From Escherichia coli (lineage in GTDB: Bacteria > Pseudomonadota > Gammaproteobacteria > Enterobacterales > Enterobacteriaceae), in the NCBI RefSeq assembly GCF_044324875.1, contig NZ_CP172187.1: DNA of 64,000 nt, one strand, 5' to 3'. This document shows positions 3,377 through 58,425 of this stretch, piece by piece. How positions within the stretch are numbered: position 1 is the first letter of the stretch; every line of letters starts with the position of its first letter. Under the pieces are notes generated by a model. The model was given only the letters and a program-made list of their open reading frames with translations, did no database searches and was not told where the DNA came from. A program made the translations under genes and the position numbers.

Positions 3377-3406
3377 TCAACATAGGTCATCCTAAAATAC
3401 ATTAAA

Positions 3407-3487
3407 GATAACAAGATAACAAGATAACAAGATAACAAGATAACAAGATAACAAGGTGTTATCTTGTTATCTCAAGGTGTTATCTTT
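3407..3487. repeat. iteron array: six direct copies of GATAACAA followed by three inverted copies (TGTTATC)
   Basis: Read directly at 3407-3454 (direct) and 3455-3487 (inverted); immediately downstream of the parG-like gene. Confidence 0.85.
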
Positions 3488-3782
3488 GTTTTACTTCTGC
3501 TATCAATCGTGATACCTCTGTTTTTGATAGTGTTTTAAGTGCTTCTACCGCCGCCCTGACAACATCAGAACGATTCACTCTGCCTTTACCTGAAACCATC
3601 TCAGCCGTTATAAGGGCATCAATGTCTTTTAGGTTTTCTTCAAAAAAAGAAATACTCACTGGTTTTGCTTTGCTTACAACCGATGATTTATCTGATGACT
3701 TTTTGGTATTATCAAGGCCAGCCGTGCCACCGTTAATAAATGCTGCCTCGTCACGAGGTGAAGTGTTTGCTCTATTTCTCAC
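3480..3782 (-). CDS. ParG-like ribbon-helix-helix centromere-binding partition protein
   Basis: 100 aa with flexible basic N-tail and RHH-like C-terminus; 4-bp overlap with the upstream ParA-family gene, typical of type Ib par operons. Confidence 0.6.
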   Translation of the reverse strand: MRNRANTSPRDEAAFINGGTAGLDNTKKSSDKSSVVSKAKPVSISFFEENLKDIDALITAEMVSGKGRVNRSDVVRAAVEALKTLSKTEVSRLIAEVKQR

Positions 3783-4405
3783 AGAATAACCTCTTTCACT
3801 AACGCTTCGATTTCTTGCTGGGCTTTATCATTTTGCGTTTCAAAAATTGTCATTGATTCGGCCCAAGCATCTCGATGTGCTTTACGATCACATACCCGGG
3901 AGTTTGCCAGATGCATTTCAGGGTAATCCTTAAGTACTTCAGCTGCCTCATTGGCTTCATTAACAAACATATTTGTGGGCGTCATGTTTAAAACGAGATA
4001 TCCCCGAACATCCTCATTAAAATCTTTTGCTGCTGTAAAAACGGAGCATGTATGAGGCACAACATCCAGGTCCATCTGAGATGGGCGCAAAGGAGAAATG
4101 AATACATCTGCGGCCATCAATCCACTACGCATTTCTGCGCTATCACGGCCAGCACAGTCTGCAATAACAAAATCATAGGATTTTTCGTGTTCCTTTAACA
4201 TGGCTTTGATGTTACCTGTCGCGCCTGTAACCGGAATATGAGGGAGATCTTCAGGGCGATTGTTGTACCAGGTTAATACTGATTTCTGGTCATCTGCGTC
4301 GACAATAATCACTCTATTGCCTAGTGACATCAGATACGCAGCTATAGATACCGCCAGTGTACTTTTACCTACCCCACCCTTTTGACTACCTAATACTATT
4401 ATCAT
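3779..4405 (-). CDS. parA: ParA/ParF-family partition ATPase (small, type Ib)
   Basis: 208 aa; deviant Walker A KGGVGKST at N-terminus; GAGG RBS upstream of ATG. Confidence 0.85.
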   Translation of the reverse strand: MIIVLGSQKGGVGKSTLAVSIAAYLMSLGNRVIIVDADDQKSVLTWYNNRPEDLPHIPVTGATGNIKAMLKEHEKSYDFVIADCAGRDSAEMRSGLMAADVFISPLRPSQMDLDVVPHTCSVFTAAKDFNEDVRGYLVLNMTPTNMFVNEANEAAEVLKDYPEMHLANSRVCDRKAHRDAWAESMTIFETQNDKAQQEIEALVKEVIL

Positions 4406-4413
4406 TATAGCCT

Positions 4414-4500
4414 CATATTAAGTTGTTAAGTTAACAACTTAATATTGCCATCTGAACGCGAATCATGCAATTATTTTTGTTATATTAACAACTTAACAAG
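4414..4500. promoter_or_regulatory. palindromic operator-like sites upstream of the par operon (TTAAGTTGTT-AAGTT-AACAACTTAA and repeated AACAACTTAA motifs)
   Basis: Perfect inverted repeat read at 4414-4443 and related motifs to about 4500, in the par promoter region. Confidence 0.5.
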
Positions 4501-4532
4501 TTATTAAGTATTTGATTTATAGATTAATTAAT

Positions 4533-4580
4533 ATAACAAGATAACAAGATAACAAGATAACAAGATAACAAGATAACAAT
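4533..4580. repeat. iteron array: six tandem copies of ATAACAAG (same 8-bp unit as 3407-3487)
   Basis: Read directly; upstream of the par operon, so the par cassette is bracketed by the same iteron. Confidence 0.85.
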
Positions 4581-7236: not shown

Positions 7237-8163
7237 ATGCCAAACTGGTGCTCAAATCGTATGTATTTTTCTGGTGAACCAGCACAGATCGCTGAGATTA
7301 AACGACTGGCCAGCGGTGCAGTCACACCGCTTTATCGCCGCGCCACAGATGAAGGTATTCAGCTGTTTCTGGCCGGTAGTGCCGGACTTCTGCAGACCAC
7401 TGAAGATGTGCGGTTTGAACCATGCCCCGGACTGACGGCTGCCGGACGTGGTGTTGTATCGCCGGAGAATATCGCGTTCACCCGCTGGCTGACACACCTG
7501 CAGAACGGTGTGCTACTGGATGAAAAAAACTGCCTGATGCTGCATGAACTCTGGCTGCAGAGTGGTACTGGCCAGCGTCGCTGGGAAGGATTACCGGATG
7601 AGGTCAGGGAAAGCATCACCGTGCATTTCACCGCCAAAAGAGGTAACTGGTGTGGCTTCTGGAGTAACGAGGATGTATCGGTGTGGTGGAACCGTCTGTG
7701 TGACAATGTACTGCCGGAAAAAACCATGCCGTTTGACCTGCTGACGGTTCTGCCCACCCGCCTGGATGTTGAAGTGAATGGCTTTAACGGTGGTGTTCTG
7801 AACGGTGTTCCTTCTGCGTATCACTGGTATACGGAACAGTATGGCGTGAAGTGGCCTGTGGGGTATGAGGTGAATATCAGCAGTCAGGGAGACAACTTCA
7901 TTCAGGTTGATTTCGACACGCCGTGGTGTCAGCCGGAAAGCGACGTTATTGCAGAATTAAGCCGCCGTTTCAGTTGCACACTGGAGCACTGGTATGCCGA
8001 GCAGGGCTGCAATTTCTGTGGCTGGCAGCGATATGAGCGTGGAGAGCTTGTTGATGTCCTGTGGGGGGAATTGGAATGGTCTTCCCCGACAGATGACGAT
8101 GAGCTGCCGGAAGTCACCGGACCTGCGTGGATTGTCGACAAGGTGGCGCATTACGGTGGATGA
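7237..8163 (+). CDS. hypothetical Cys-rich leading-region protein (family not assigned)
   Basis: 308 aa from ATG preceded by GAGGAG RBS (MPNWCSNRMYF...); multiple Cys/Trp-rich motifs incl. CNFCGW. Confidence 0.7.
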   Translation: MPNWCSNRMYFSGEPAQIAEIKRLASGAVTPLYRRATDEGIQLFLAGSAGLLQTTEDVRFEPCPGLTAAGRGVVSPENIAFTRWLTHLQNGVLLDEKNCLMLHELWLQSGTGQRRWEGLPDEVRESITVHFTAKRGNWCGFWSNEDVSVWWNRLCDNVLPEKTMPFDLLTVLPTRLDVEVNGFNGGVLNGVPSAYHWYTEQYGVKWPVGYEVNISSQGDNFIQVDFDTPWCQPESDVIAELSRRFSCTLEHWYAEQGCNFCGWQRYERGELVDVLWGELEWSSPTDDDELPEVTGPAWIVDKVAHYGG

Positions 8164-10903: not shown

Positions 10904-11329
10904 ATGCAATATGCGAAACCTGTCACTCTGAATGTTGAAGAGTGCGACCGTCTGTTTTTTCTGCCTTACCTGTTTGGCCAGGATTTTCTGTATGCCGAGG
11001 CATCTGTGTACGCGCTGGCGAAAAAAATGATGCCGGAATATGACGGCGGATTCTGGCACTTCATCCGCCTGCCGGACGGTGGCGGTTACATGATGCCGGA
11101 TGGCGACCGTTTTCATCTGGTCAACGGTGAAAACTGGTTTGACCGTACGGTCAGCGCCGATGCCGCAGGCATCATTGTGACTTCCCTTGTGATTAACCGT
11201 CAGTTGTGGCTGTACCACGACAGCGGTGATGCAGGACTGACTCACCTGTACAGGATGCGCGATGCGCAGTTGTGGAGCCACATCGAATTTCACCCCGAAT
11301 GCAATGCGATTTACGCGGCACTGGACTGA
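10904..11329 (+). CDS. klcA: KlcA/ArdB-family antirestriction-like protein
   Basis: 141 aa; GGAGG RBS; size and sequence character match KlcA/ArdB family from memory; followed by GGCGGCAATGCCGCC hairpin. Confidence 0.6.
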
Positions 11330-11375
11330 TTAACGGACGGGGCGGCAATGCCGCCCCTGTAAAGGAGACGAGAAC

Positions 11376-11798
11376 ATGTACTGTACTGTTAAAGAAATTA
11401 TCCGCGAAGTGCTGGATACAGACGTGCCGGACAGTGAATGCGTTTTTGCCGTGGTGCTGACCCGTGGGGATGTGCGCCACATAGCTCAGGACTGGAGTCT
11501 GGCAGACGATGAGCTGGAAACCGTCATGCAGCGGCTGGACGATGCCTTTGAGCATGGTGCGGATGTCAGCGTTGTTCACGACGTTGTTCGTGAACTGATG
11601 GAAGAAAAGCGCGCCAGCCGTCATGTGACAGTCCCGGCGATGATGCTGGAAAAAGTGATGGCGCTGGCAGGCAGTGAAATGAAGCGCCTGTATGCCGTCG
11701 GAAGTGAGAACGGGGGCGACGGTGACGCATTCGTCAGGGAGGAACGCGAAGCAATGGACGTTGTGTTACAGGCGCTGGACGGGGAGACGATGTCATGA
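11376..11798 (+). CDS. hypothetical leading-region protein, paralog of the 9465-9899 product
   Basis: 140 aa; AAGGAGA RBS; paralogy visible by eye. Confidence 0.65.
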   Translation: MYCTVKEIIREVLDTDVPDSECVFAVVLTRGDVRHIAQDWSLADDELETVMQRLDDAFEHGADVSVVHDVVRELMEEKRASRHVTVPAMMLEKVMALAGSEMKRLYAVGSENGGDGDAFVREEREAMDVVLQALDGETMS

Positions 11799-11986
11799 AT
11801 ATCAGCACAGAAACCCGCGAAATTCTGCGTAATTACAGGGCCGTGATTAATGCGCGGCGTCGTGAAATGGGGCAGAAACCGCTCACCACCGCGCAGATTG
11901 TTGATGAAATCTGCGATTTTGTGGCGAATCAGCAGGCGGTTTTCCTGGGCGGTCACTACATCTTACAGGGCAGCAGAAACAGGTGA
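11795..11986 (+). CDS. hypothetical small protein (63 aa)
   Basis: ATGA overlap with upstream gene. Confidence 0.4.
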   Translation: MNISTETREILRNYRAVINARRREMGQKPLTTAQIVDEICDFVANQQAVFLGGHYILQGSRNR

Positions 11987-12178
11987 TACAGGGGCAGGCG
12001 GTGGAGGCCGCCTGTCAGCCCGCGCGAAAACCCCTGGCAGGCTGACGCCTGCCGGAAGGGAAGCGGGCCACGCTGGCGCGTCGCCCGTTACCCTTCCCGT
12101 CTGTGATGTGTCTGACTCAGGAGTGTTTCTTTCTTATGTTGCGGAACTGTTCCTGATGTTGTTGTTGTTCCTTTATCT

Positions 12179-12788
12179 GCTGCTCTGATTCTGACTACTG
12201 CAGTGTTGTTCTGTCTGCCGGGCGCACCTTCGGCTCCCGGCTGCCTGGCGGCATCCGGTCGTCAGGCCCGACTCCGACAGGCAGCTGCTGGCGCACCTGC
12301 CAGTCTCCGCCGAACCCGCTGGCGCGGCTTCGGGCTGCCGCTACGGTCCGATGCGTGAAAACCCCGGGCTTGCAGCGACCGTTCTGGTCGCGCCGCCTCT
12401 GTCGCGCCGTGGCCTGCGCTCCAGGCATCCCGGCAAAAAGACGCCGGGATGTAAGGCGCAACGCCGTTTCGCAAACCGCGCTTCACGTCGTTGCTGCGGG
12501 TCCCTGCTCATTGCCTGCCGGGTGCCACACACCCGTATGAGTCCCTGTCGCCGGGGGCATAGACAGCCACAACCTGCCGCACTGACTGTCCAGGGTAAAT
12601 GAACAGCCCACAAAATTTTTTACCCAAAACCCGGTAAAAAATTTTGCGTTCTGCCCAGGACAGGTGCGTCAGGCCGTGGCAGTGATGCCCCTTGCGGCGA
12701 AGGTTCTCAAACGGGTGAAGTTCATACCACAGGGAATACAGCAGCAGGTTCCCGCGAAACGTCAAAACCGCGGCTCCCGAAACTCAAC
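12179..12788 (+). repeat. leading-region repeat family B, copy 1 (~610 bp, GC-rich, internal palindromes); Frpo/ssi-like
   Basis: Three near-identical direct copies (12179-12788, 15536-16167, 23600-24229); contains hairpins such as CATCCCGGC-AAAAAGAC-GCCGGGATG. Confidence 0.85.
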
Positions 12789-13027
12789 GGGTGATGTTCT
12801 TTAAAAATCAGGATTTATTTCAGGCTCCGGCAATACGCATTTATGTGTTCTGTCAGTCATCCGGCTGGCAGGTAATGAGAACGCAGGAACAGAAGGAGGA
12901 AAACACCGGAGAACGTCAGACGCAGATATGAAAAAAGCAGGCCGGGGAGGACCTGCTTAATCCACACCGCAAAAACTGTTCGAGCAGTTTCTGCGGTTCC
13001 ATTCAACAGTCATAAGGAGTTTCATTT

Positions 13028-13258
13028 ATGACGGTAAGTATTGTTTCACCTTCCGCAGCGGCTGTAAAGCCCCGCCGTCATCCCCGTTTCAGACGCGAAG
13101 ACATCCCCGCGCCGGAAATTGACCCCGTGCTGAAAGCCTTCGGGCGACACATAGCCCGGAGTTTTCACCGGGGGCGTGGTGTACACATCCCCGCCATGAA
13201 AAACACGGCCTTCGGGCAGGTGCTCCGCACACTCGAACTGAAACGCGCTTTTAACTGA
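13028..13258 (+). CDS. hypothetical basic small protein (76 aa)
   Basis: AAGGAG RBS; first ORF after repeat B1. Confidence 0.45.
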   Translation: MTVSIVSPSAAAVKPRRHPRFRREDIPAPEIDPVLKAFGRHIARSFHRGRGVHIPAMKNTAFGQVLRTLELKRAFN

Positions 13259-13309
13259 TGAGGTGAGCCGCCCCGCGAGGGGCGGCAACAGATGGAAGGA
13301 GAACATTTT

Positions 13310-14671
13310 ATGACATTAGCAGCAATCACCATGACCGCCCCGGAAGCCGCCAACCCTGTGCAGATGTACCGCGCGACCTACTCACCGGATGACAACAAAC
13401 TGCGCCTGTATGCCGCGTCACGTCTTGACCCGGAGACGTATAAAAAAGTGCATGATGCCGGTTTTCGCTGGGCACCCAAACAGGCGCTGTTTGTCGCGCC
13501 AGCCTGGACACCGGGCCGGGAAGACGTGCTCCTCTCACTTGCCGGAGAGATTGAGGATGAAGACAGCACGCTCGCTGAACGTCAGGAAGCACGGGCGGAG
13601 CGGTTTACCGGATACAGCGGAAAGCGGGCCAGTGAATCCGCACAGGCACTTGATGAAGTGGAAAGACTGGCCGCGATGATCCCGCCCGGTCAGCCCATTC
13701 TTGTGGGGCATCACAGCGAACGCCGCGCCCGTCGTGATGCGCAGCGTATTGAAAACGGCATGAAACGTGCCGTGATGCTCTTTGAGCGTGCGGAATACTG
13801 GGAGGAGCGGGCGCGGTCGGCACTGCTTCACGCGAAGTATAAAGAACGCCCGGACGTTCGCTGGCGTCGTATCAAAAAAATCGAAGCGGATTTGCGCAAG
13901 GCTGAAAAGACCATCGCGCAGTCGCAGAAATATCTGACGATGTGGCGGGCTGAATCGCTGGATCTGAATATGGCAAAACTCATCAGCAGTCATGACCATA
14001 TCAGCGCCTGTTTCCCGCTGGACAGGTATCCGCGCCCGGCAGAAAAAAGCCAGTATGAAGGAAGTCGATCGTTATGGTCGGCCCTGGATGATGACATCAT
14101 CACCACGGAGCAGGCCCGCGAAATTGCGATCCGCTGTCATGAACGGCAGATTCAGCATCAACAACGCTGGGTTAACCACTATCATAACCGCCTGATCTAT
14201 GAGCGTGCCATGCTGGACGAAAGCGGCGGCGTGGTTACCCGGACACAGGATTTTGAGCCGGGCGGACAGGTTTTCAGCCGGGGCGAGTGGCTGACCATCA
14301 TCCGCGTGAACAAAAGCAACGGGGCGGTGAGTTCAGTCACAACGCCGAATTACAGTTTTCTCGGGTACAGCGGCACGATGAAAGTGACACCCGATCGCAT
14401 CACGGACTACAAAGCACCATCGGCAGAAGAGGCTGCCGTCGCCAGTCAGGCCGCGAAGCGTCCGCCGGTAGTCAACTATCCGGGGGAAGGTTTCCGGGAA
14501 ATGACAAAGGCGCAGTGGGCCGCCCTGCCCCGGGACTGTAAGGCCGTGCGCAGTGTGGCAGAGACAGAAGACCACGGGGCATACCGCTACCGCCGCACAA
14601 TGGACAATAATTTCCGCCTGGTGAATGTGTATATCACTGACATGAAAATCACGGAAATCCCACAGAAATAA
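13310..14671 (+). CDS. hypothetical leading-region protein (453 aa, coiled-coil-rich middle)
   Basis: Start at ATG after GGAAGGAGA RBS (MTLAAITMTAP...); no family recognised. Confidence 0.7.
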   Translation: MTLAAITMTAPEAANPVQMYRATYSPDDNKLRLYAASRLDPETYKKVHDAGFRWAPKQALFVAPAWTPGREDVLLSLAGEIEDEDSTLAERQEARAERFTGYSGKRASESAQALDEVERLAAMIPPGQPILVGHHSERRARRDAQRIENGMKRAVMLFERAEYWEERARSALLHAKYKERPDVRWRRIKKIEADLRKAEKTIAQSQKYLTMWRAESLDLNMAKLISSHDHISACFPLDRYPRPAEKSQYEGSRSLWSALDDDIITTEQAREIAIRCHERQIQHQQRWVNHYHNRLIYERAMLDESGGVVTRTQDFEPGGQVFSRGEWLTIIRVNKSNGAVSSVTTPNYSFLGYSGTMKVTPDRITDYKAPSAEEAAVASQAAKRPPVVNYPGEGFREMTKAQWAALPRDCKAVRSVAETEDHGAYRYRRTMDNNFRLVNVYITDMKITEIPQK

Positions 14672-14717
14672 GGTATATCCCCCCGGGAAATCCCCGGGGG
14701 ATGACGGAGATAATGAC

Positions 14718-15281
14718 ATGCACAGTCAGTTAAGAGAACGTATCCGGCTGATGCGCGCAAGGCTGGATAACGCCGCGCCGGTTGCTGAAATCCGGGCTGA
14801 ATCTCAGCTTTTTGTGACTCCTGCCCCGGTCTGTGATCGCCTGGTGACGCTGGCGGAAATCAGCAACCGTGATCACATTCTGGAACCCTCTGCCGGCACC
14901 GGGGCCATACTGCTGGCGATTCGGGATACCGCGCCGGAGGCCATGTGTGATGCGGTGGAGATTAACAGCGGGCTGGTCCGGTATCTGCGGGAAAATTTTA
15001 ACGGTGTCAGGGTACAGTGTGGCGACTTCATGGAATGGCAGCCGGTGCAGTATTACAGCCGGATCATTATGAATCCGCCGTTCAGTCACGGGCAGGATAT
15101 CCGGCATATCCTGCGGGCTTTTTCCCTGTTGCGTCCGGGGGGCGTTCTGGTTGCCGTCTGTCTCAACGGGCCGCGCCAGCAGGAGAAGCTGTTACCGTTT
15201 TCTGACGTCCGCGAGGAGCTGCCGCGCGGCACGTTTGCTTATACCGATGTCCCGACGATGATTATTCGTTTGCGTGCCTGA
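14718..15281 (+). CDS. small SAM-dependent methyltransferase-like protein (motif I EPSAGTGAI, motif IV NPPF), no obvious target-recognition domain
   Basis: 187 aa; N6-adenine MTase-type motifs read in the ORF; GGAGA RBS. Confidence 0.7.
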   Translation: MHSQLRERIRLMRARLDNAAPVAEIRAESQLFVTPAPVCDRLVTLAEISNRDHILEPSAGTGAILLAIRDTAPEAMCDAVEINSGLVRYLRENFNGVRVQCGDFMEWQPVQYYSRIIMNPPFSHGQDIRHILRAFSLLRPGGVLVAVCLNGPRQQEKLLPFSDVREELPRGTFAYTDVPTMIIRLRA

Positions 15282-15460
15282 TGACACAGGGCTGGCGGGA
15301 GGATAAATGCCCGTCTGTCCGCGCCGGGAAAAGACCGCGCGCCGGTGGCGCTGAAAGGGGCCGCGCTCACGCGCCGCCCCTTTCATTACGCGGACGTTCT
15401 GATGGGGGCTTCTGTCTTTTCAGACCTGTCATTTGTCTGTTACTGATGATGTTGTTGTTC

Positions 15461-15525
15461 CTGCTACTGCTACTGCTACTGCTACTGCTACTGCTACTGC
15501 TACTGCTACTGCTACTGCTACTGCT
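15461..15525. repeat. hexanucleotide tandem repeat (CTGCTA)n, ~11 copies
   Basis: Read directly; absent at the equivalent position of repeat copies B1 and B3. Confidence 0.9.
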
Positions 15526-15535
15526 CTTCTTTTTC

Positions 15536-16167
15536 CTGCTGCTCTGATTCTGACTACTGCAGTGTTGTTCTGTCTGCCGGGCGCACCTTCGGCTCCCGGC
15601 TGCCTGGCGGCATCCGGTCGTCAGGCCCGACTCCGACAGGCAGCTGCTGGCGCACCTGCCAGTCTCCGCCGAACCCGCTGGCGCGGTTTCGGGCTGCCGC
15701 TACGGTCCGATGCGTGAAAACCCGGCTTGCAGCGACCGTTCCGGTCGCGCCGCCCCTGTCGCGCCGTGACCTGCGCTCCAGGCATCCCGGCAAAAAGACG
15801 CCGGGATGTAAGGCGCAACGCCGTTTCGCAAACCGCGCTTCACGTCGTTGCGGCGGGTCCCTGCCCGTTGTTGTGTCCGGTGCCATTCACCTGTTTAAGC
15901 CCCTGTCGCCGGGGGCTGATACAGCCACAACCTGCCGCACTGACTGTCCAGGGTAAATGAACAGCCCACAAAATTTTTTACCCAAAACCCGGTAAAAAAT
16001 TTTGCGTTCTGCCCAGGACAGGTGCGTCAGGCCGTGGCAGTGATGCCCCATGCGGCGAAGGTTCTCAAACAGGTGATGGTGAATACCGGAGGGAACAAAG
16101 AGCAGGTCCCCGCAAAACGTCAAAACCGCGGCTCCCGAAACTCAACAGATGATGGGGGCTGAAAACA
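15536..16167 (+). repeat. leading-region repeat family B, copy 2 (immediately upstream of ssb)
   Basis: Near-identical to copies at 12179 and 23600. Confidence 0.85.
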
Positions 16168-16187
16168 TCAACAGAAGGAGACACATC

Positions 16188-19100
16188 ATGGCAGTTCGTG
16201 GCATTAACAAGGTCATTCTTGTCGGTGTGCGCCGTTGAAGCGCGGTGTTTTATGGAGTGTTGCCTGAAAAGCAACATGGCTTAGTGGTATAGCCATTGCA
16301 TACTGTGGTTAGCCTTGCTTGGTAACAGGCTCGGAGATCCTGAAAAGGAGAGGTGAACATAGCATCCACAGAAAAGGGTGGTGAATATGGAAATCGTTAT
16401 AAGTATCACCATTCAATGCAAGATGTATATGGATAAACTGGGTTTGTTGAAGTCGAGATCTATGTGGGAAACAGGAAACCAATAACGCAGAACGATTGAA
16501 GCGTTATTCCCGTACTAGCACAAGAAATCCGTCCGACGTTGATTGTGACCACTCTAACGGGCCAGCTATTGATGAAATAGTTAAACGATCGAAAGACATC
16601 CTAAGTACATCGCATCTCCACACCGTGAAACTACGGGACTACCTAAACTGGATTTATACCCAGCATGGTAGCGGAGTCTCCATAGTACTCAAGGTCGGCC
16701 TGTAATGGGTTCCGGCAGTCCGCATTATACGGAAGCAGCAAAGGTATAAATCAACCGGAAGGAAGATGAAAGCCTCACAGTGCTGCGGGGAAGGGAGACA
16801 GTTGTTAGATACATCAATCTCTAAGAGGAGGGTTAGCCAATGCTGCCTGATGAACTTGAGAAAAGATTAGATGGAATTGAGGATGCTTCAAAAAAAGGGT
16901 ATCCAGTACGTAATCTATACAAAATTGCGTGTGAGCCCGGACTGTGGCTGCAAGCCTACGTGAATATACGGGCCAATGCAGGTGCACTGACTCAAGGTGT
17001 ATCAACAGATACCATTGATGGCTTTTCTATCGAAAGAGCAGAGAAGCTGGCAAAAACATTGCGGAGTAGAGAATACGTAGCGAAACCTGTACGCAGAGTT
17101 CAGATCCCAAAAAAGGACGGAAAAACCAGACCGCTGGGGATTCCAGGTGGAGACGATAAACTGGCGCAAGAAGTAGCAAGAATTATTCTGGAAAGGGTTT
17201 ATGAACCAGTATTCTCTGAACACTCTCATGGATTCAGACCAAAACGTTCGTGTGAAACTGCGCTCAGATCTATTCGTCCAGTCTGGAACGGAGTTAAATG
17301 GATCGTGGATGTTGATATCAAAGGTTTCTTTGACAATATCCCCCACAAACTATTGCTGAATACACTGGCAGAGAAAATTAAGGATAAGAATTTCCTGAAA
17401 TTAATCGAACAGTGGCTGAAGGCAGGATATGTGGACAATTGGAAATACCATCGCTCATATTCTGGCACGCCACAAGGTGGGATAATTTCTCCCTTACTGG
17501 CAAATATATACCTCGACAAACTGGACCGTTTTGTAGAACAGAATTTAATTCCTGCATATACAAGCGGTACAAAACGAAGAGCGAATCCAGATATGAACAG
17601 GCTGGCCCATAAGATTCATAAACTACGAAAGAAAGTAGACGGTATGGCAACTGATTCTGAATCAGAAAAAGAAGCCATAAAGAAAGAAATTGAACGACTG
17701 CTTGAAGAAAAACGTTCTATACCATCTCAGGTCATGAACGATCCAAACTTCAGGCGTATGTACTATGTTCGATATGCTGATGACTTCGTAATCGGTGTCA
17801 TCGGCTCGAAGAAAGATGCTGAACATATATCAAGACAGGTCAGAAACTTTATTACTACTTCACTGGGATTGGAAGTTAATGAAGCAAAGACCAGGATCCG
17901 CCATATCTCAGAAGGAGTTAATTTTTTAGGCTATGAAATCAGACAGGCAGATGCAAAGAAATTGCTGAAGCAGAAAATGCAAGGGCGGCACGCTCTCCGG
18001 AGATCCACCACAGGAATTGTGCAGCTCTTCGTTCCTGACAATATAGCCGCTAAATTTTGTCACCAAAAGAAATATGGCTGTTATGAGAATGTGAAGGCTG
18101 TACATCGTTCAAGTCTACAAAATCTCAGTGAAGCTGAAATTGTTCTGACTTTCAACGCGGAAATGCGCGGATTGGCGAACTACTACAGTCTGGCGCTGGA
18201 CATGAAATATAAATTATCAAAATTATATTTCATATGGCAAATAAGCCTTTTTAAGACCCTGGCGAATAAACGACGTAGTTCAGTGAATAAAGTCGCCAAA
18301 TCGCTACGGCAAAATAATGGAGATCTGGCTATTACCGTTCAGGCCAAAAATGGATCCCGAAAGATTGAGGTTTTCAAACTCAAACATGTCAATCGCAACC
18401 GAACAACGATTGTCGATACGGAACCGAGAACCGCACATATCACAACCCGCACAACAGAGATCATGCGTCGATTAGGGGCAAGGATCTGCGAGTATTGTGC
18501 GAAGACTGGGCGCTGCGAAGTACATCATGTCAGAAAGCTAAAAGACCTGAAGAAAGGTCGTAAGGCCGGATATAAACCCAGCTTGTGGCAACTAATGATG
18601 ATCGCACGCCGCCGGAAAACGATGATTTTGTGCGCAAGTTGCCACGACAAGTTACATAGCGGAAAACTACCCGATTTGAGACAGGAAAAGGGAAGAATAC
18701 TCCTGCAACCACCTGTCTCAAGCGGGGATTCTGCTAAATGAGTTTATCCCCAATAAGCTAGCAATGGAGAGCCGTATGCACTGAAAGGTGCACGTACGGT
18801 TCGGAGGGGGGGTAACGGTGATCTAACTCAAGATAAGCAGGACATATTCGCCATTTATCTTGAAAGACCACACGTACCCTACCCTACCGTCTGGGAAAAG
18901 ATCCGGAAGTCCGTTACATCCCAAACGGGGGCGCAGTGGCAAACCTGCAGGTGGCCACGTCAGAAAGCTGGCGCGACAAACAGACGGGGGAGATACGGGA
19001 GCAGACAGAATGGCATCGCGTGGTGCTGTTCGGCAAGCTCGCGGAAGTGGCTGGTGAGTATCTGCGCAAGGGCGCGCAGGTCTACATCGAAGGTCAGCTT

Positions 19101-30313: not shown

Positions 30314-31740
30314 TGGCCAGTATCAACACCATTGTGAAACGCAAGCAGTACCTGTGGCTGGGGATTGTGGTTGTCGGTGCAGCCTCCGCGATTGGTGGGG
30401 CACTGTATCTGTCTGATGTGGACATGTCCGGTAACGGTGAGGCGGTGGCTGAACAGGAGCCTGTACCGGATATGACCGGTGTGGTGGATACGACCTTTGA
30501 TGACAAGGTGCGTCAGCATGCCACCACAGAGATGCAGGTGACGGCAGCGCAGATGCAGAAGCAGTATGAGGAAATCCGTCGTGAGCTGGATGTCCTGAAC
30601 AAACAGCGCGGTGATGACCAGCGTCGTATTGAAAAGCTGGGACAGGATAATGCTGCCCTGGCAGAGCAGGTAAAAGCCCTGGGTGCAAATCCCGTCACCG
30701 CGACCGGTGAGCCAGTACCGCAGACGCCAGCCTCACCGCCCGGCCCGGAAGGCGAACCACAGCCAGGAAACACACCCGTATCTTTCCCGCCGCAGGGCAG
30801 CGTTGCTGTTCCACCGCCGACGGCGTTTTATCCCGGGAATGGTGTCACGCCACCACCACAGGTGACGTACCAGTCTGTGCCGGTGCCTAACCGGATACAG
30901 CGTAAGGTGTTTACCCGTAATGAGGGAAAACAGGGACCATCACTGCCGTACATTCCGTCAGGAAGTTTTGCGAAAGCCATGCTGATTGAAGGGGCGGATG
31001 CCAATGCCTCTGTCACCGGTAATGAATCCACGGTGCCGATGCAGCTGCGTATCACCGGCCTGGTGGAAATGCCGAACAGCAAGACGTATGACGCAACGGG
31101 ATGTTTTGTGGGTCTGGAAGCCTGGGGGGATGTGTCCAGTGAGCGTGCCATTGTACGCACCCGCAATATCAGCTGCCTGAAGGACGGCAAAACTATTGAT
31201 ATGCCGATTAAGGGGCATGTCAGCTTCCGGGGTAAAAACGGTATCAAGGGCGAAGTGGTGATGCGTAACGGCAAAATCCTCGGCTGGGCATGGGGCGCGG
31301 GATTTGTTGACGGTATCGGTCAGGGAATGGAGCGTGCCTCCCAGCCGGCTGTCGGGCTGGGTGCCACCGCTGCTTACGGGGCCGGCGATGTCCTTAAAAT
31401 GGGTATCGGTGGCGGCGCATCGAAAGCCGCACAGACGCTCAGTGACTACTACATCAAACGTGCCGAACAGTATCACCCGGTGATACCGATTGGTGCGGGC
31501 AACGAAGTGACCGTGGTGTTCCAGGACGGCTTCCAGCTGAAAACCGTGGAAGAGATGGCGCTGGAACGCACGCAGAGCAGAGCTGAAGAAGACAATCCGG
31601 AAAGTCCGGTTCCTGTTCCGCCATCGGCTGAAAGTCATCTTAACGGCTTTAATACTGACCAGATGCTGAAGCAGCTGGGCAACCTGAATCCGCAGCAGTT
31701 TATGTCCGGCAGCCAGGGAGGGGGCAACGATGGCAAATAA
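30313..31740 (+). CDS. traB: TraB (VirB10-like)
   Basis: 475 aa; Pro-rich linker; synteny. Confidence 0.85.
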   Translation: MASINTIVKRKQYLWLGIVVVGAASAIGGALYLSDVDMSGNGEAVAEQEPVPDMTGVVDTTFDDKVRQHATTEMQVTAAQMQKQYEEIRRELDVLNKQRGDDQRRIEKLGQDNAALAEQVKALGANPVTATGEPVPQTPASPPGPEGEPQPGNTPVSFPPQGSVAVPPPTAFYPGNGVTPPPQVTYQSVPVPNRIQRKVFTRNEGKQGPSLPYIPSGSFAKAMLIEGADANASVTGNESTVPMQLRITGLVEMPNSKTYDATGCFVGLEAWGDVSSERAIVRTRNISCLKDGKTIDMPIKGHVSFRGKNGIKGEVVMRNGKILGWAWGAGFVDGIGQGMERASQPAVGLGATAAYGAGDVLKMGIGGGASKAAQTLSDYYIKRAEQYHPVIPIGAGNEVTVVFQDGFQLKTVEEMALERTQSRAEEDNPESPVPVPPSAESHLNGFNTDQMLKQLGNLNPQQFMSGSQGGGNDGK

Positions 31741-32314
31741 TATGTCACTCCGTCAGATATGCCATGCCACCCGGTATGTTGTTGTCCGGGGCCTGTGTTG
31801 GTTGTTCTGGTGTCTGAAATACGCCGTCATTCTGCCACTGGCCACAATGGCCCTGATGGCTCTGTTTGTTTTATGGAAGGACAACACCACACCGGGAAAA
31901 TTACTGGTTCAGGAAATTGACTTCGTAAGACAAACAGCCCCTGCCGGGCAGTTTCCTGTAAGAGAATGTTTGCCTTCTCTGCATGATCTTCCAGGAGCAG
32001 AAGAGAAAATCTGCCGTTACCGTGCTGCTGATGCTGCAGATTATGTCAGGGAGACTGACCGGTCACTGATGCAACTGGTCACCGCATTCTGGGCAACGCT
32101 GGCACTTATGTATATGTCGTTTGCGGCAGGCACCGGGAAATATCCGGTGCGACCCGGAAAAATGAAATGTGTCCGTGTGGCAACAGCAGATGAGCGTCTG
32201 AAGGAAGTTCTTGCAGAAGACACTTCCCTGCCGGGAAAAATCAGGGAATGCCATGTTTATTTCCCTGATGACAGAACAATCAGAAACAACGGAGATAAAA
32301 ATGAACATGCGTAA
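31730..32314 (+). CDS. traP: TraP
   Basis: 194 aa; synteny. Confidence 0.75.
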   Translation: MANNMSLRQICHATRYVVVRGLCWLFWCLKYAVILPLATMALMALFVLWKDNTTPGKLLVQEIDFVRQTAPAGQFPVRECLPSLHDLPGAEEKICRYRAADAADYVRETDRSLMQLVTAFWATLALMYMSFAAGTGKYPVRPGKMKCVRVATADERLKEVLAEDTSLPGKIRECHVYFPDDRTIRNNGDKNEHA

Positions 32315-55887: not shown

Positions 55888-56226
55888 AGTGCTCCTGGAT
55901 TTTCTCTTTCTGGACATTGACGTCTCCACTGGTTTAAACACGGCAATGGAGACTGTGGTGAAAAGAGTTAATTCCCGGAGTGACTGGCAGGATGCCAATC
56001 AATGATCGGAAGCATGCCAAATCGTGATCGATTGTGATGCCAAACTGTGATCGGAGATGGATGCCAAATCATGATCGATTCGAATGCCAAACTGCGATCG
56101 ATTCAGATGCCATTTTGCAGCAGGCGGGTATCACCACCGGCATACAGGGTACACCTGGTCTGTTTCTGTGAATTAACCCCACATCATCCTTTTCTGCCCT
56201 GTTCCAGATTTTCCCGGAGTTTCATC

Positions 56227-58425
56227 ATGAGTTTTAACGCAAAGGATATGACCCAGGGCGGTCAGATTGCGTCCATGCGTATCCGCATGTTCAGCCAGAT
56301 CGCCAATATCATGCTTTACTGCCTGTTTATTTTTTTCTGGATACTCGTTGGTCTGGTTTTATGGGTAAAAATAAGCTGGCAGACGTTTGTGAACGGCTGT
56401 ATTTACTGGTGGTGTACCACGCTGGAAGGCATGCGGGATTTAATCAAGTCCCAGCCAGTATATGAGATTCAGTATTACGGCAAAACCTTCCGGATGAACG
56501 CTGCCCAGGTACTGCATGATAAATATATGATCTGGTGCGGTGAGCAGCTATGGTCCGCATTCGTTCTGGCGTCTGTCGTGGCCCTGGTTATTTGCCTGAT
56601 CACCTTCTTTGTTGTCTCCTGGATTCTGGGGCGTCAGGGTAAACAACAGAGCGAAAATGAAGTCACAGGTGGTCGTCAGCTGACAGACAATCCGAAAGAC
56701 GTTGCCCGGATGCTGAAAAAAGACGGCAAGGACTCCGATATCCGGATTGGCGACCTGCCGATTATCCGGGATTCCGAAATCCAGAACTTCTGTCTGCACG
56801 GCACGGTCGGGGCCGGTAAGTCGGAGGTTATCCGTCGTCTGGCCAACTACGCCCGTCAGCGCGGTGATATGGTGGTGATTTATGACCGTTCAGGGGAATT
56901 TGTTAAAAGTTACTATGATCCCTCCATCGATAAAATCCTGAATCCGCTGGATGCCCGCTGTGCCGCATGGGATTTGTGGAAGGAGTGCCTGACACAGCCG
57001 GATTTTGATAATACCGCAAATACTCTGATCCCTATGGGTACAAAAGAGGACCCGTTCTGGCAGGGTTCAGGACGTACCATTTTTGCGGAAGCGGCGTACC
57101 TGATGCGTAATGACCCCAACCGCAGCTACAGCAAACTGGTGGACACACTGCTTTCCATCAAAATTGAAAAACTGCGTACCTTCCTGCGTAATTCACCGGC
57201 AGCCAACCTGGTGGAAGAGAAAATTGAGAAAACGGCGATTTCCATCCGTGCTGTGCTGACCAACTACGTGAAAGCCATCCGTTACCTGCAGGGGATTGAG
57301 CATAACGGTGAGTCTTTTACCATCCGTGACTGGATGCGTGGTGTCCGGGAAGATCAGAAAAACGGCTGGCTGTTTATCTCGTCGAATGCCGACACCCATG
57401 CCTCCCTGAAGCCGGTGATCTCCATGTGGCTGTCCATTGCCATTCGTGGTCTGCTGGCAATGGGAGAAAACCGTAACCGTCGTGTGTGGTTTTTCTGTGA
57501 CGAGTTACCCACGTTACACAAACTGCCGGACCTGGTGGAGATCCTGCCGGAAGCCCGTAAGTTCGGAGGCTGTTATGTGTTTGGTATCCAGTCCTATGCC
57601 CAGCTGGAAGATATCTACGGTGAGAAAGCGGCGGCCACGCTGTTTGACGTCATGAACACCCGTGCTTTTTTCCGTTCCCCGAGCCATAAGATTGCAGAGT
57701 TCGCTGCCGGTGAGATTGGTGAGAAAGAGCACCTGAAAGCCAGCGAGCAGTATTCCTACGGTGCTGACCCGGTACGTGACGGGGTATCGACCGGTAAGGA
57801 TATGGAGCGTCAGACACTGGTCAGTTATTCCGACATTCAGTCTCTGCCGGATCTGACCTGCTATGTCACTCTGCCCGGACCGTATCCGGCAGTAAAACTC
57901 TCCCTGAAATATCAGGCACGACCGAAGGTCGCTCCGGAGTTTATTCCGCGTGACATCAACCCGGAAATGGAGAACCGTCTGAGTGCCGTACTTGCTGCAA
58001 GGGAAGCAGAAGGTCGCCAGATGGCCAGCCTCTTCGAACCGGAGGTTGCCTCCGGAGAAGGCGTGACTCAGGCTGAACAGCCACAACAGCCACAACAGCC
58101 ACAACAGCCACAACAGCCACAACAGCCACAACAGCCACAACAGCCAGTGTCTTCTGTCATGAATGATAAGAAGTCAGATGCAGGTGTGAGTGTTCCGGCA
58201 GGGGGGATCGAGCAGGAGCTGAAAATGAAACCGGAAGAAGAGATGGAACAGCAACTGCCACCCGGGATCAGTGAATCCGGTGAAGTGGTGGATATGGCCG
58301 CTTATGAGGCATGGCAACAGGAAAATCATCCGGACATCCAGCAGCAGATGCAGCGTCGTGAAGAGGTGAACATTAATGTGCACCGGGAGCGCGGGGAGGA
58401 TGTTGAGCCGGGAGATGATTTCTGA
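56227..58425 (+). CDS. traD: TraD coupling protein (T4CP)
   Basis: 732 aa from [13 protein letters not shown]...; Walker A GTVGAGKS; C-terminal QPQ repeats. Confidence 0.9.
58078..58146 (+). repeat. in-frame 9-bp tandem repeat (CAGCCACAA)x~7.7 encoding (QPQ)n in TraD C-terminus
   Basis: Read directly. Confidence 0.9.

Follow-up and report, generated by a model that had tools for sequence, protein, structure and literature searches.

Genomic context of the run

The window, that is, the whole 64-kb stretch of Escherichia coli DNA analysed here, corresponds to an IncF plasmid's leading and transfer region. At least 5000 plasmid records from Escherichia, Klebsiella, Salmonella and Shigella match the 1.1 kb surrounding the repeat considered below; most of them are conjugative plasmids of the MOBF/MPF_F type. 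Rfam families found in the window (scan of positions 11000-28000) include a group II intron, sok (23.0 kb), and the traJ 5' UTR together with FinP (27.2 kb). The sequence AGTGTGTGGTGCTTT on the minus strand (26367-26381), between a transglycosylase gene and traM, is presumably nic-like, judging by the F nic site. Since this candidate site is on the minus strand and the leading genes all lie on the plus strand, it is predicted that the minus strand is the one transferred.

The genes preceding the run encode an antirestriction protein, a DUF1380 protein, a small ORF, a DUF3560 protein (13292-14671) and a methyltransferase; the run is followed by ssb (Table 1). A group II intron splits the ssb gene after codon 13. 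The exon limits were set by comparison with the intron-less ssb of a homologous locus (L001). The intron contains an ltrA-type ORF (16840-18741) with Pfam domains RVT_1, Intron_maturas2 and HNH, and the Rfam family Intron_gpII matches its end (18767-18887). PLSDB has 314 records with the same exon-intron junction, on varied backbones from E. coli, Klebsiella, Shigella and E. albertii, which suggests a recurrent homing site within ssb.

Table 1. Features surrounding the hexanucleotide run (positions in the window)
Feature	Position	Strand	Description
Class I SAM-dependent methyltransferase gene	14718..15281	+	Pfam MTS/Methyltransf_25; PGAP annotation in homologous plasmids
Poly-Leu ORF across the run	15281..15547	+	PGAP 'hypothetical protein'; judged spurious
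GC-rich inverted repeat GAAAGGGGCCGCGC TCAC GCGCCGCCCCTTTC	15353..15384	.	follows the methyltransferase gene; upstream limit of the module
(Ala-Thr)n ORF across the run	15433..15717	+	TTG start; overlaps the poly-Leu ORF; judged spurious
Left flank CTGATGATGTTGTTGTTC	15443..15460	+	homologous to the B1 spacer CTGATGTTGTTGTTGTTC (alignment of B1, B2 and B3)
Microsatellite (CTGCTA)x10.8	15461..15525	+	ten full units and CTGCT
Right flank	15526..15543	+	last C of the degenerate terminal unit, then T-rich TTCTTTTTCCTGCTGCT leading into the conserved B core
GC-rich 5' domain of copy B2	15544..15712	+	common to B1 and B3 (repeat search, alignment)
Frpo2-type class 1 single-stranded-DNA promoter region	15713..16190	+	homology to the F plasmid
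ssb, intron-split	16188..19376	+	exon 1 16188-16226, intron 16227-18887, exon 2 18888-19376

The hexanucleotide run

Tandem Repeats Finder (TRF) describes the run as an array of period 6 with 10.8 copies, 100% matches, no indels and the consensus CTGCTA. These are short units repeated head to tail with complete identity, and thus the run is a microsatellite. The tract of about eleven (CTGCTA)n units described in an earlier note on this DNA is seen in the raw sequence as well. On the minus, transferred strand the run reads (TAGCAG)n. A regular-expression scan of both strands of the 64-kb window found no further stretch in which CTGCTA occurs at least twice in tandem.

In 30 order-3 Markov simulations of the window, which served as the chance baseline, the longest perfect tandems with periods from 4 to 9 covered 16-20 nt, as compared with 65 nt for the run. 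Thus the run is real, and chance is insufficient to account for it. Many metagenome contigs end near this locus, and this raised the question of whether the run might be an artefact of assembly or sequencing, if not a chance stretch of low complexity. Nothing else speaks for such an origin, whereas many laboratories and hosts are represented among the complete circular plasmid records with the run, and it is also found in 120 metagenome contigs and in a published plasmid comparison. The probability of an artefact or a chance stretch is practically nil.

The run sits between the stop codon of the methyltransferase gene (15281) and the conserved core of copy B2 of a repeated element (15544). The region from the GC-rich inverted repeat to this core is a T-rich, A-poor spacer. 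In other plasmids the left flank of the run consists of polymorphic trinucleotide runs, (ATG)0-1 and (TTG)0-4 in the allele table. At the right end the array passes into a degenerate terminal unit, which starts at 15521, within the TRF array, and reads CTGCTC in the window. In the census of 141 loci described below this unit is CTGTTC in 102 cases and CTGCTC in 36.

Repeat family B and single-stranded-DNA promoters

The repeat search of the window produced three copies of the element, which constitute family B: B1 (12163-12811), B2 (15522-16169) and B3 (23583-24232). The three-copy alignment gives the order CTGATGTTGTTGTTGTTC-CTTTAT-CTGCTGCTCTGATT in B1 and CTGATGATGTTGTTGTTC-(CTGCTA)n-CTGCTCTTCTTTTTC-CTGCTGCTCTGATT in B2. 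Since the left flank of the run is homologous to B1, the run is an expansion inside the weakly conserved 5' spacer of the repeated unit. The alignment agrees with the earlier note in that the run is absent from B1 and B3. The same note had placed the run at the 5' edge of B2, upstream of ssb. It is indeed next to B2, but not strictly at the outer edge, as homology to B1 continues on its left side; and it is indeed upstream of ssb, but at a distance of some 660 nt, with a whole single-stranded-DNA promoter module in between.

The members of family B are single-stranded-DNA (ssDNA) promoters of the Frpo/ssi class; the counterpart of B2 is Frpo2, upstream of ssb. The segment of B2 listed in Table 1 is 93.9% identical to the segment of the F plasmid that ends at the start of ssbF, and 88.9% identical to the Frpo1 segment of F upstream of ygeA. 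Promoters of this kind reportedly go back to work by Masai and Arai in 1997. Couturier et al. gave the names Frpo1 and Frpo2 and showed that early expression from single-stranded DNA depends on these elements (PMC9849209). Together with ssi1-3, the Frpo elements have been grouped as class 1 ssDNA promoters (PMC12672017). When the minus strand of 15380-16200 is folded as DNA, it forms a long hairpin at approximately 15826-16141 and a second GC-rich domain, with a z-score of -11.2 relative to shuffled sequences. Thus B2 resembles the class 1 promoters both in sequence and in the long hairpin. The microsatellite, however, is an upstream spacer and not a part of the promoter: it lies outside both the F-homologous segment and the hairpin, which in promoters of this class rebuilds the -35 and -10 boxes, and CTGCTA runs were found neither in Frpo1 and Frpo2 of F nor in B1 and B3.

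The F plasmid itself was rejected as a carrier of the run, as it has neither the DUF3560-methyltransferase segment nor CTGCTA repeats. At the matching place upstream of its Frpo2, F (NC_002483.1, locus L017) has a different pyrimidine repeat, (TTCCTCTTC)x3, within CTTCTTCTTTTTCC...TTCTTTCC (about 7985-8060 of the locus). The spacers of all three B copies are A-poor and T-rich. It seems that the 5' spacer of Frpo-type modules is generally prone to triplet-periodic, A-poor repeats. The F repeat and the composition of the B spacers together imply that the spacer as such may be under some constraint.

In plasmids of the R100/F type, the GC-rich 5' domain of B2 is replaced by an alternative version. 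Thus the run is paired with two alternative downstream 5' domains, that of the window and that of R100/F. On the upstream side, four metagenome loci (L033, L056, L126 and the second copy in L029) have a different gene before the same hairpin, spacer and run. As this arrangement is kept behind a different upstream gene, the module starts at the hairpin formed by the inverted repeat.

Three metagenome contigs (L029, L082 and L085) contain two hairpin-spacer-microsatellite modules each, 3-9 kb apart. The numbers of units in the paired modules are 3+3, 6+6 and, unequally, 4+2, and in two of the contigs the downstream domains of the pair differ. The module can thus be duplicated within one leading region. 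In two further loci, L015 and L016, the B 5' domain is broken by an insertion immediately after CTGTCTGCCGGG, about 130 nt downstream of the run; in L016 the insertion is followed by a group II intron ltrA gene on the opposite strand. The B 5' domain of the Frpo-type module is apparently another target of introns and insertions. The Rfam family AS-pc01 (RF02875, 'antisense to pHK01_035') has a match with a score of 89.7 bits on the minus strand just downstream of B1 (12932-13033), overlapping the start of the small ORF 13028-13258. Rfam gave no equivalent match downstream of B2 or B3.

Copy number among plasmids

The number n of full units was counted in two samples. The first consists of 23 homologous regions from PLSDB, taken at even steps down the match list and supplemented by records sharing the ssb intron junction. 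The second consists of 120 contigs from gut metagenomes holding a conserved 24-mer of the left flank. Among 141 complete tracts from both sources n varies from 1 to 12, given that the PLSDB sample was picked by similarity to a ten-unit query and hence is biased towards long alleles, and that short-read metagenome assemblies may under-represent them. The 118 metagenome loci have a median of five units, the counts for n from 1 to 12 being 10, 16, 14, 17, 18, 18, 15, 3, 4, 1, 0 and 2. The window allele (n=10) belongs to the upper tail of this distribution, and alleles with more than twelve units were absent from the 141 loci. The full units are uninterrupted in all 141 cases, and length differences within the run are always multiples of six, so that the run is polymorphic in whole units.

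The number of units varies on identical backgrounds. When loci are grouped by identity of 250 nt on both sides, n differs in 11 of 13 groups; with identical flanks of 400 nt it still differs in four groups out of five, e.g. 10/11/12 and 6/7/7/8/9. Each flank haplotype observed at least five times covers several values of n, and the two most common ones cover the entire range. The closest plasmid, NZ_CP100504.1, has nine units as opposed to ten in the window, although 700 nt upstream and 706 nt downstream are 100% identical. The comparison of related plasmids that the earlier note had called for therefore reveals a variable repeat number. Its suggestion of a slippage-prone tract whose length varies between isolates holds as well, in agreement with the published data (PMC6052338). 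The differences in n between loci with identical flanks follow the pattern expected from slippage and suggest that it is fast and proceeds in steps of one unit. Compared with the build-up of point substitutions in the flanking DNA, change of the repeat number is the faster process.

Of 5426 complete E. coli genomes, 2732 contain the module recognised by the left flank, nearly always on plasmids. Apart from E. coli, the run was observed in Klebsiella, Salmonella, Shigella, E. albertii and E. fergusonii. The range of 1-12 units spans IncF and some IncI-complex backbones, and the run also resides on at least one backbone of the MOBP/MPF_I type.

Copy-number polymorphism of this locus is already known. 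Wang et al. (mSphere 2018) described 6-bp GCTACT repeats in a gene named yddA of F33:A-:B- plasmids; their table lists 6-9 copies, and some plasmids are identical apart from how many repeats their yddA and traD contain (PMC6052338). GCTACT is CTGCTA read two bases later. In pHN7A8 (NC_019073.1), eight units occupy positions 32031-32078, between the methyltransferase gene (31288-31851) and ssb (32700). This number agrees with Table 2 of the cited paper, and thus both the unit and the position are the same. The flanks in pHN7A8 coincide with those of loci L011-L013, and the left one is as in the window. The published locus was considered in one lineage, with 6-9 units, and placed in a gene, whereas here n ranges from 1 to 12 on many backbones and there is no coding signal.

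Coding potential

Two ORFs cross the run on the plus strand (Table 1). Judging by the reading frame, the (Ala-Thr)n ORF is probably the yddA of the literature. A coding repeat would be either this protein or a hydrophobic poly-Leu peptide coupled to the methyltransferase, with changes of length staying in frame. Indeed, both frames are open across the run in every locus, both ORFs have been annotated, by PGAP and in the literature, and the unit length is a multiple of three. The poly-Leu frame usually ends 24 nt past the run, and in many plasmids it starts at TGATG, where the ATG overlaps the stop codon of the methyltransferase gene.

However, the two ORFs overlap, so both cannot be real, and neither of them had a match in the Pfam scan. 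In the poly-Leu ORF, the N-terminal part upstream of the hairpin is shifted by 1-nt indels between lineages, one lineage has a 20-nt deletion, and the coupling ATG is gone in TGAAG variants. Because of these indels and the lost ATG, the N-terminus of the poly-Leu ORF is not conserved. As for the Ala-Thr frame, most loci have no ATG for it, and upstream of the run it is open for only 55-58 nt. Downstream it enters the thrice-repeated B domain, where indels of 1-2 nt are common. In 67 unique copies the variable sites of this frame are distributed over the three phases as 29/31/28, i.e. with no excess in the third position. A skew of 2/10/4 seen for the Ala-Thr frame in a small set, which might have pointed to third-position bias in another frame or to the minus-strand ORF 15554-15886, was lost in the 67 copies and is discarded as a small-sample fluctuation. 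On the minus strand, one frame of the run is a series of TAG stop codons, and the Ser frame has no upstream start codon.

Thus neither a conserved start, nor a restriction to frame-preserving indels, nor a third-position excess was found for the ORFs. Changes in multiples of three follow from the unit length and leave every frame open whether or not it is translated; they are uninformative on coding. Given the weak starts, the indels, the even phases and the lack of Pfam matches, we conclude that the run is non-coding, and consider a coding repeat improbable.

RefSeq holds many accessions of poly-Leu and (Ala-Thr)n proteins produced by PGAP, roughly one per repeat-number allele, e.g. WP_249960395.1, WP_254539453.1, WP_001697809.1, WP_124767219.1, WP_001333093.1 and WP_071606928.1. 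These hypothetical proteins, of which there are hundreds, are probably annotation noise that inflates the databases.

Structure and possible relation to ssb expression

A crude consensus scan of positions 15000-16300 did not reveal any sigma-70-like promoter, and none of the six terminator-like sites in the same interval coincides with the run. No Rfam family falls on the run in the scan of 11000-28000. Some 190 nt separate the run from the Frpo2-homologous segment downstream of it, and some 300 nt from the hairpin base. In the centroid structure predicted for the minus strand, the run is unpaired. The minus strand was refolded in silico with n = 0, 1, 3, 5, 8, 10, 12 and 20. The minimum free energy remained between -216.6 and -221.3 kcal/mol, with 96-100% of the core pairs unchanged. 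Anatomy, as far as such predicted folds can tell, lends no support to a link between the run and the expression of ssb.

Two other roles of the sequence were considered and rejected. Self-structure, which might cause expansion as in CTG repeats, amounts to -3 to -4 kcal/mol per 60 nt for the run, compared with -19.8 for (CTG)20. DnaG primase recognises CTG, and the CTG triplets of the run could have been its sites. However, the presumed transferred template strand, assigned by the nic-like site on the minus strand and the orientation of the genes, has CAG and not CTG.

One possibility is that the spacer is tunable, so that n would modulate how the Frpo2-type promoter fires, how primers are synthesised or how much read-through the methyltransferase operon contributes, and thereby the level of ssb and psiB products after transfer. 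The run is directly upstream of a module that is needed in F for early ssb expression (PMC9849209), all B copies and Frpo2 of F have a pyrimidine-rich spacer of low complexity at this place, and the run is kept in most lineages. On the other hand, the run is far from both the promoter segment and the hairpin, no duplex promoter was detected at 15000-16300, and the predicted structure of the transferred strand is insensitive to n. Besides, an element of defined length is not expected to span 1-12 units evenly within single haplotypes. Finally, deletion of Frpo2 or ssbF in F left the frequency of conjugation unaltered (PMC9849209), and thus selection on fine tuning would be weak. Overall, a tunable spacer has a small chance of being the correct explanation.

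Another possibility is that the T-poor (TAGCAG)n strand is a landing pad, either a structure-free loading site for SSB, RecA or PsiB, or a repeated site bound by some protein of the plasmid, for instance the ParB-like one of the leading region. It would be consistent with the prediction that the run and its flanks are unpaired beside a very strongly structured region, and with the skewed composition of the spacers in all B copies. However, there is no evidence for a candidate binding protein, single-unit alleles are common (10 of the 118 metagenome loci), and the motif is missing from B1, B3 and Frpo2 of F. A binding array is thus most improbable.

Other repeats in the window

The second variable repeat reported along with the 6-bp one is a 9-bp repeat in traD, given as CAACAGCCG (PMC6052338). 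In the window, traD (56047-58425) contains a perfect 9-bp repeat AACAGCCAC in 7.9 copies (58076-58146). It is likewise perfect and variable in copy number on the same backbone. However, it is inside a well-supported gene, as TraD has Pfam matches, and changes the length of the protein, whereas the 6-bp run is in a spacer. Directly upstream of traD there is an imperfect tandem array (55990-56112) with period 23, also seen as period 47, and about 4.3 copies.

Two perfect 8-bp arrays, AAGATAAC x6.4 (within 3405-3472) and ATAACAAG x5.9 (within 4485-4579), flank a gene for a ParA/MipZ-type ATPase (3779-4405) and an ORF of 100 aa (3480-3782), both on the minus strand. The former array is followed by two copies of the inverted sequence TGTTATCT (3457-3472), and the latter is preceded by the imperfect repeat TTAACAAC x2.4 with 90% matches (4485-4503). 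The 8-bp arrays look like iterons of a partition site or operator. A length difference between two plasmids has been listed as an '8 bp tandem repeat' (PMC3817090).

Evolution and significance of the run

We conclude that the run is likely a near-neutral, hypervariable hexanucleotide microsatellite in a non-coding pyrimidine-rich spacer, located on the upstream side of the Frpo2-type module, which in IncF plasmids and their relatives drives ssb. When the DNA is replicated, slipped-strand mispairing would add or remove one unit, or a few, per event. MutS-dependent mismatch repair recognises loops of six bases poorly. Such loops would therefore escape repair, and tracts of this kind may be unstable even in repair-proficient hosts. 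As the unit length is divisible by three and the run lies outside the promoter, changes of length would have no on/off consequence, and the alleles of the run would simply drift. Its anatomy and pattern of variation argue that the run is probably selectively neutral. Its persistence in many lineages and with two 5' domains, or the absence of alleles longer than twelve units, may be due to weak selection or to a ceiling set by mutation.

Multiple-locus variable-number tandem repeat analysis (MLVA) of Enterobacteriaceae uses variable-number tandem repeat loci. The run shares with them short perfect units, slippage in unit steps, high homoplasy and the lack of a known phenotype. However, it is borne by plasmids and moves between hosts, and thus serves to type plasmids, not strains. 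With the phase-variable contingency loci of Haemophilus, Neisseria and Campylobacter, the run would have in common slipped-strand mispairing and a high, reversible mutation rate. Such loci switch genes, either by a non-triplet unit within an ORF or by a change of promoter spacing, whereas the unit here has six bases and the run is outside any supported ORF or promoter. Indeed, with a unit of 6 nt the reading frames are unaffected by n, no sigma-70-like match was seen in the crude scan, and the run is some 300 nt away from the hairpin.

Contrary to neutral drift, the run might be a selected structure-free stretch of adjustable length, with n tuning the engagement of SSB or RNA polymerase or read-through from the methyltransferase operon. 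Its association with two different downstream domains, its presence in half of the complete E. coli genomes, the uninterrupted state of the runs and the pyrimidine repeat of F are the points in favour of such selection, which we nevertheless consider very improbable. If this were true, the run would be a heritable and quickly reversible dial on early expression of ssb and psiB in plasmid populations. A new biological question would arise only if the copy number affected gene expression early after conjugation.

Compared with the published polymorphism, the present analysis adds the range of 1-12 units, the breadth of hosts and backbones, the rapid and recurrent change, the placement relative to a Frpo2-type promoter, and arguments that yddA and the poly-Leu ORF are artefacts of annotation. 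For a near-neutral microsatellite of this kind, the practical meaning is that the run explains small differences in length between otherwise 'identical' plasmids, and that it is a very fine marker for tracking plasmids in studies of outbreaks and transmission, with high homoplasy.
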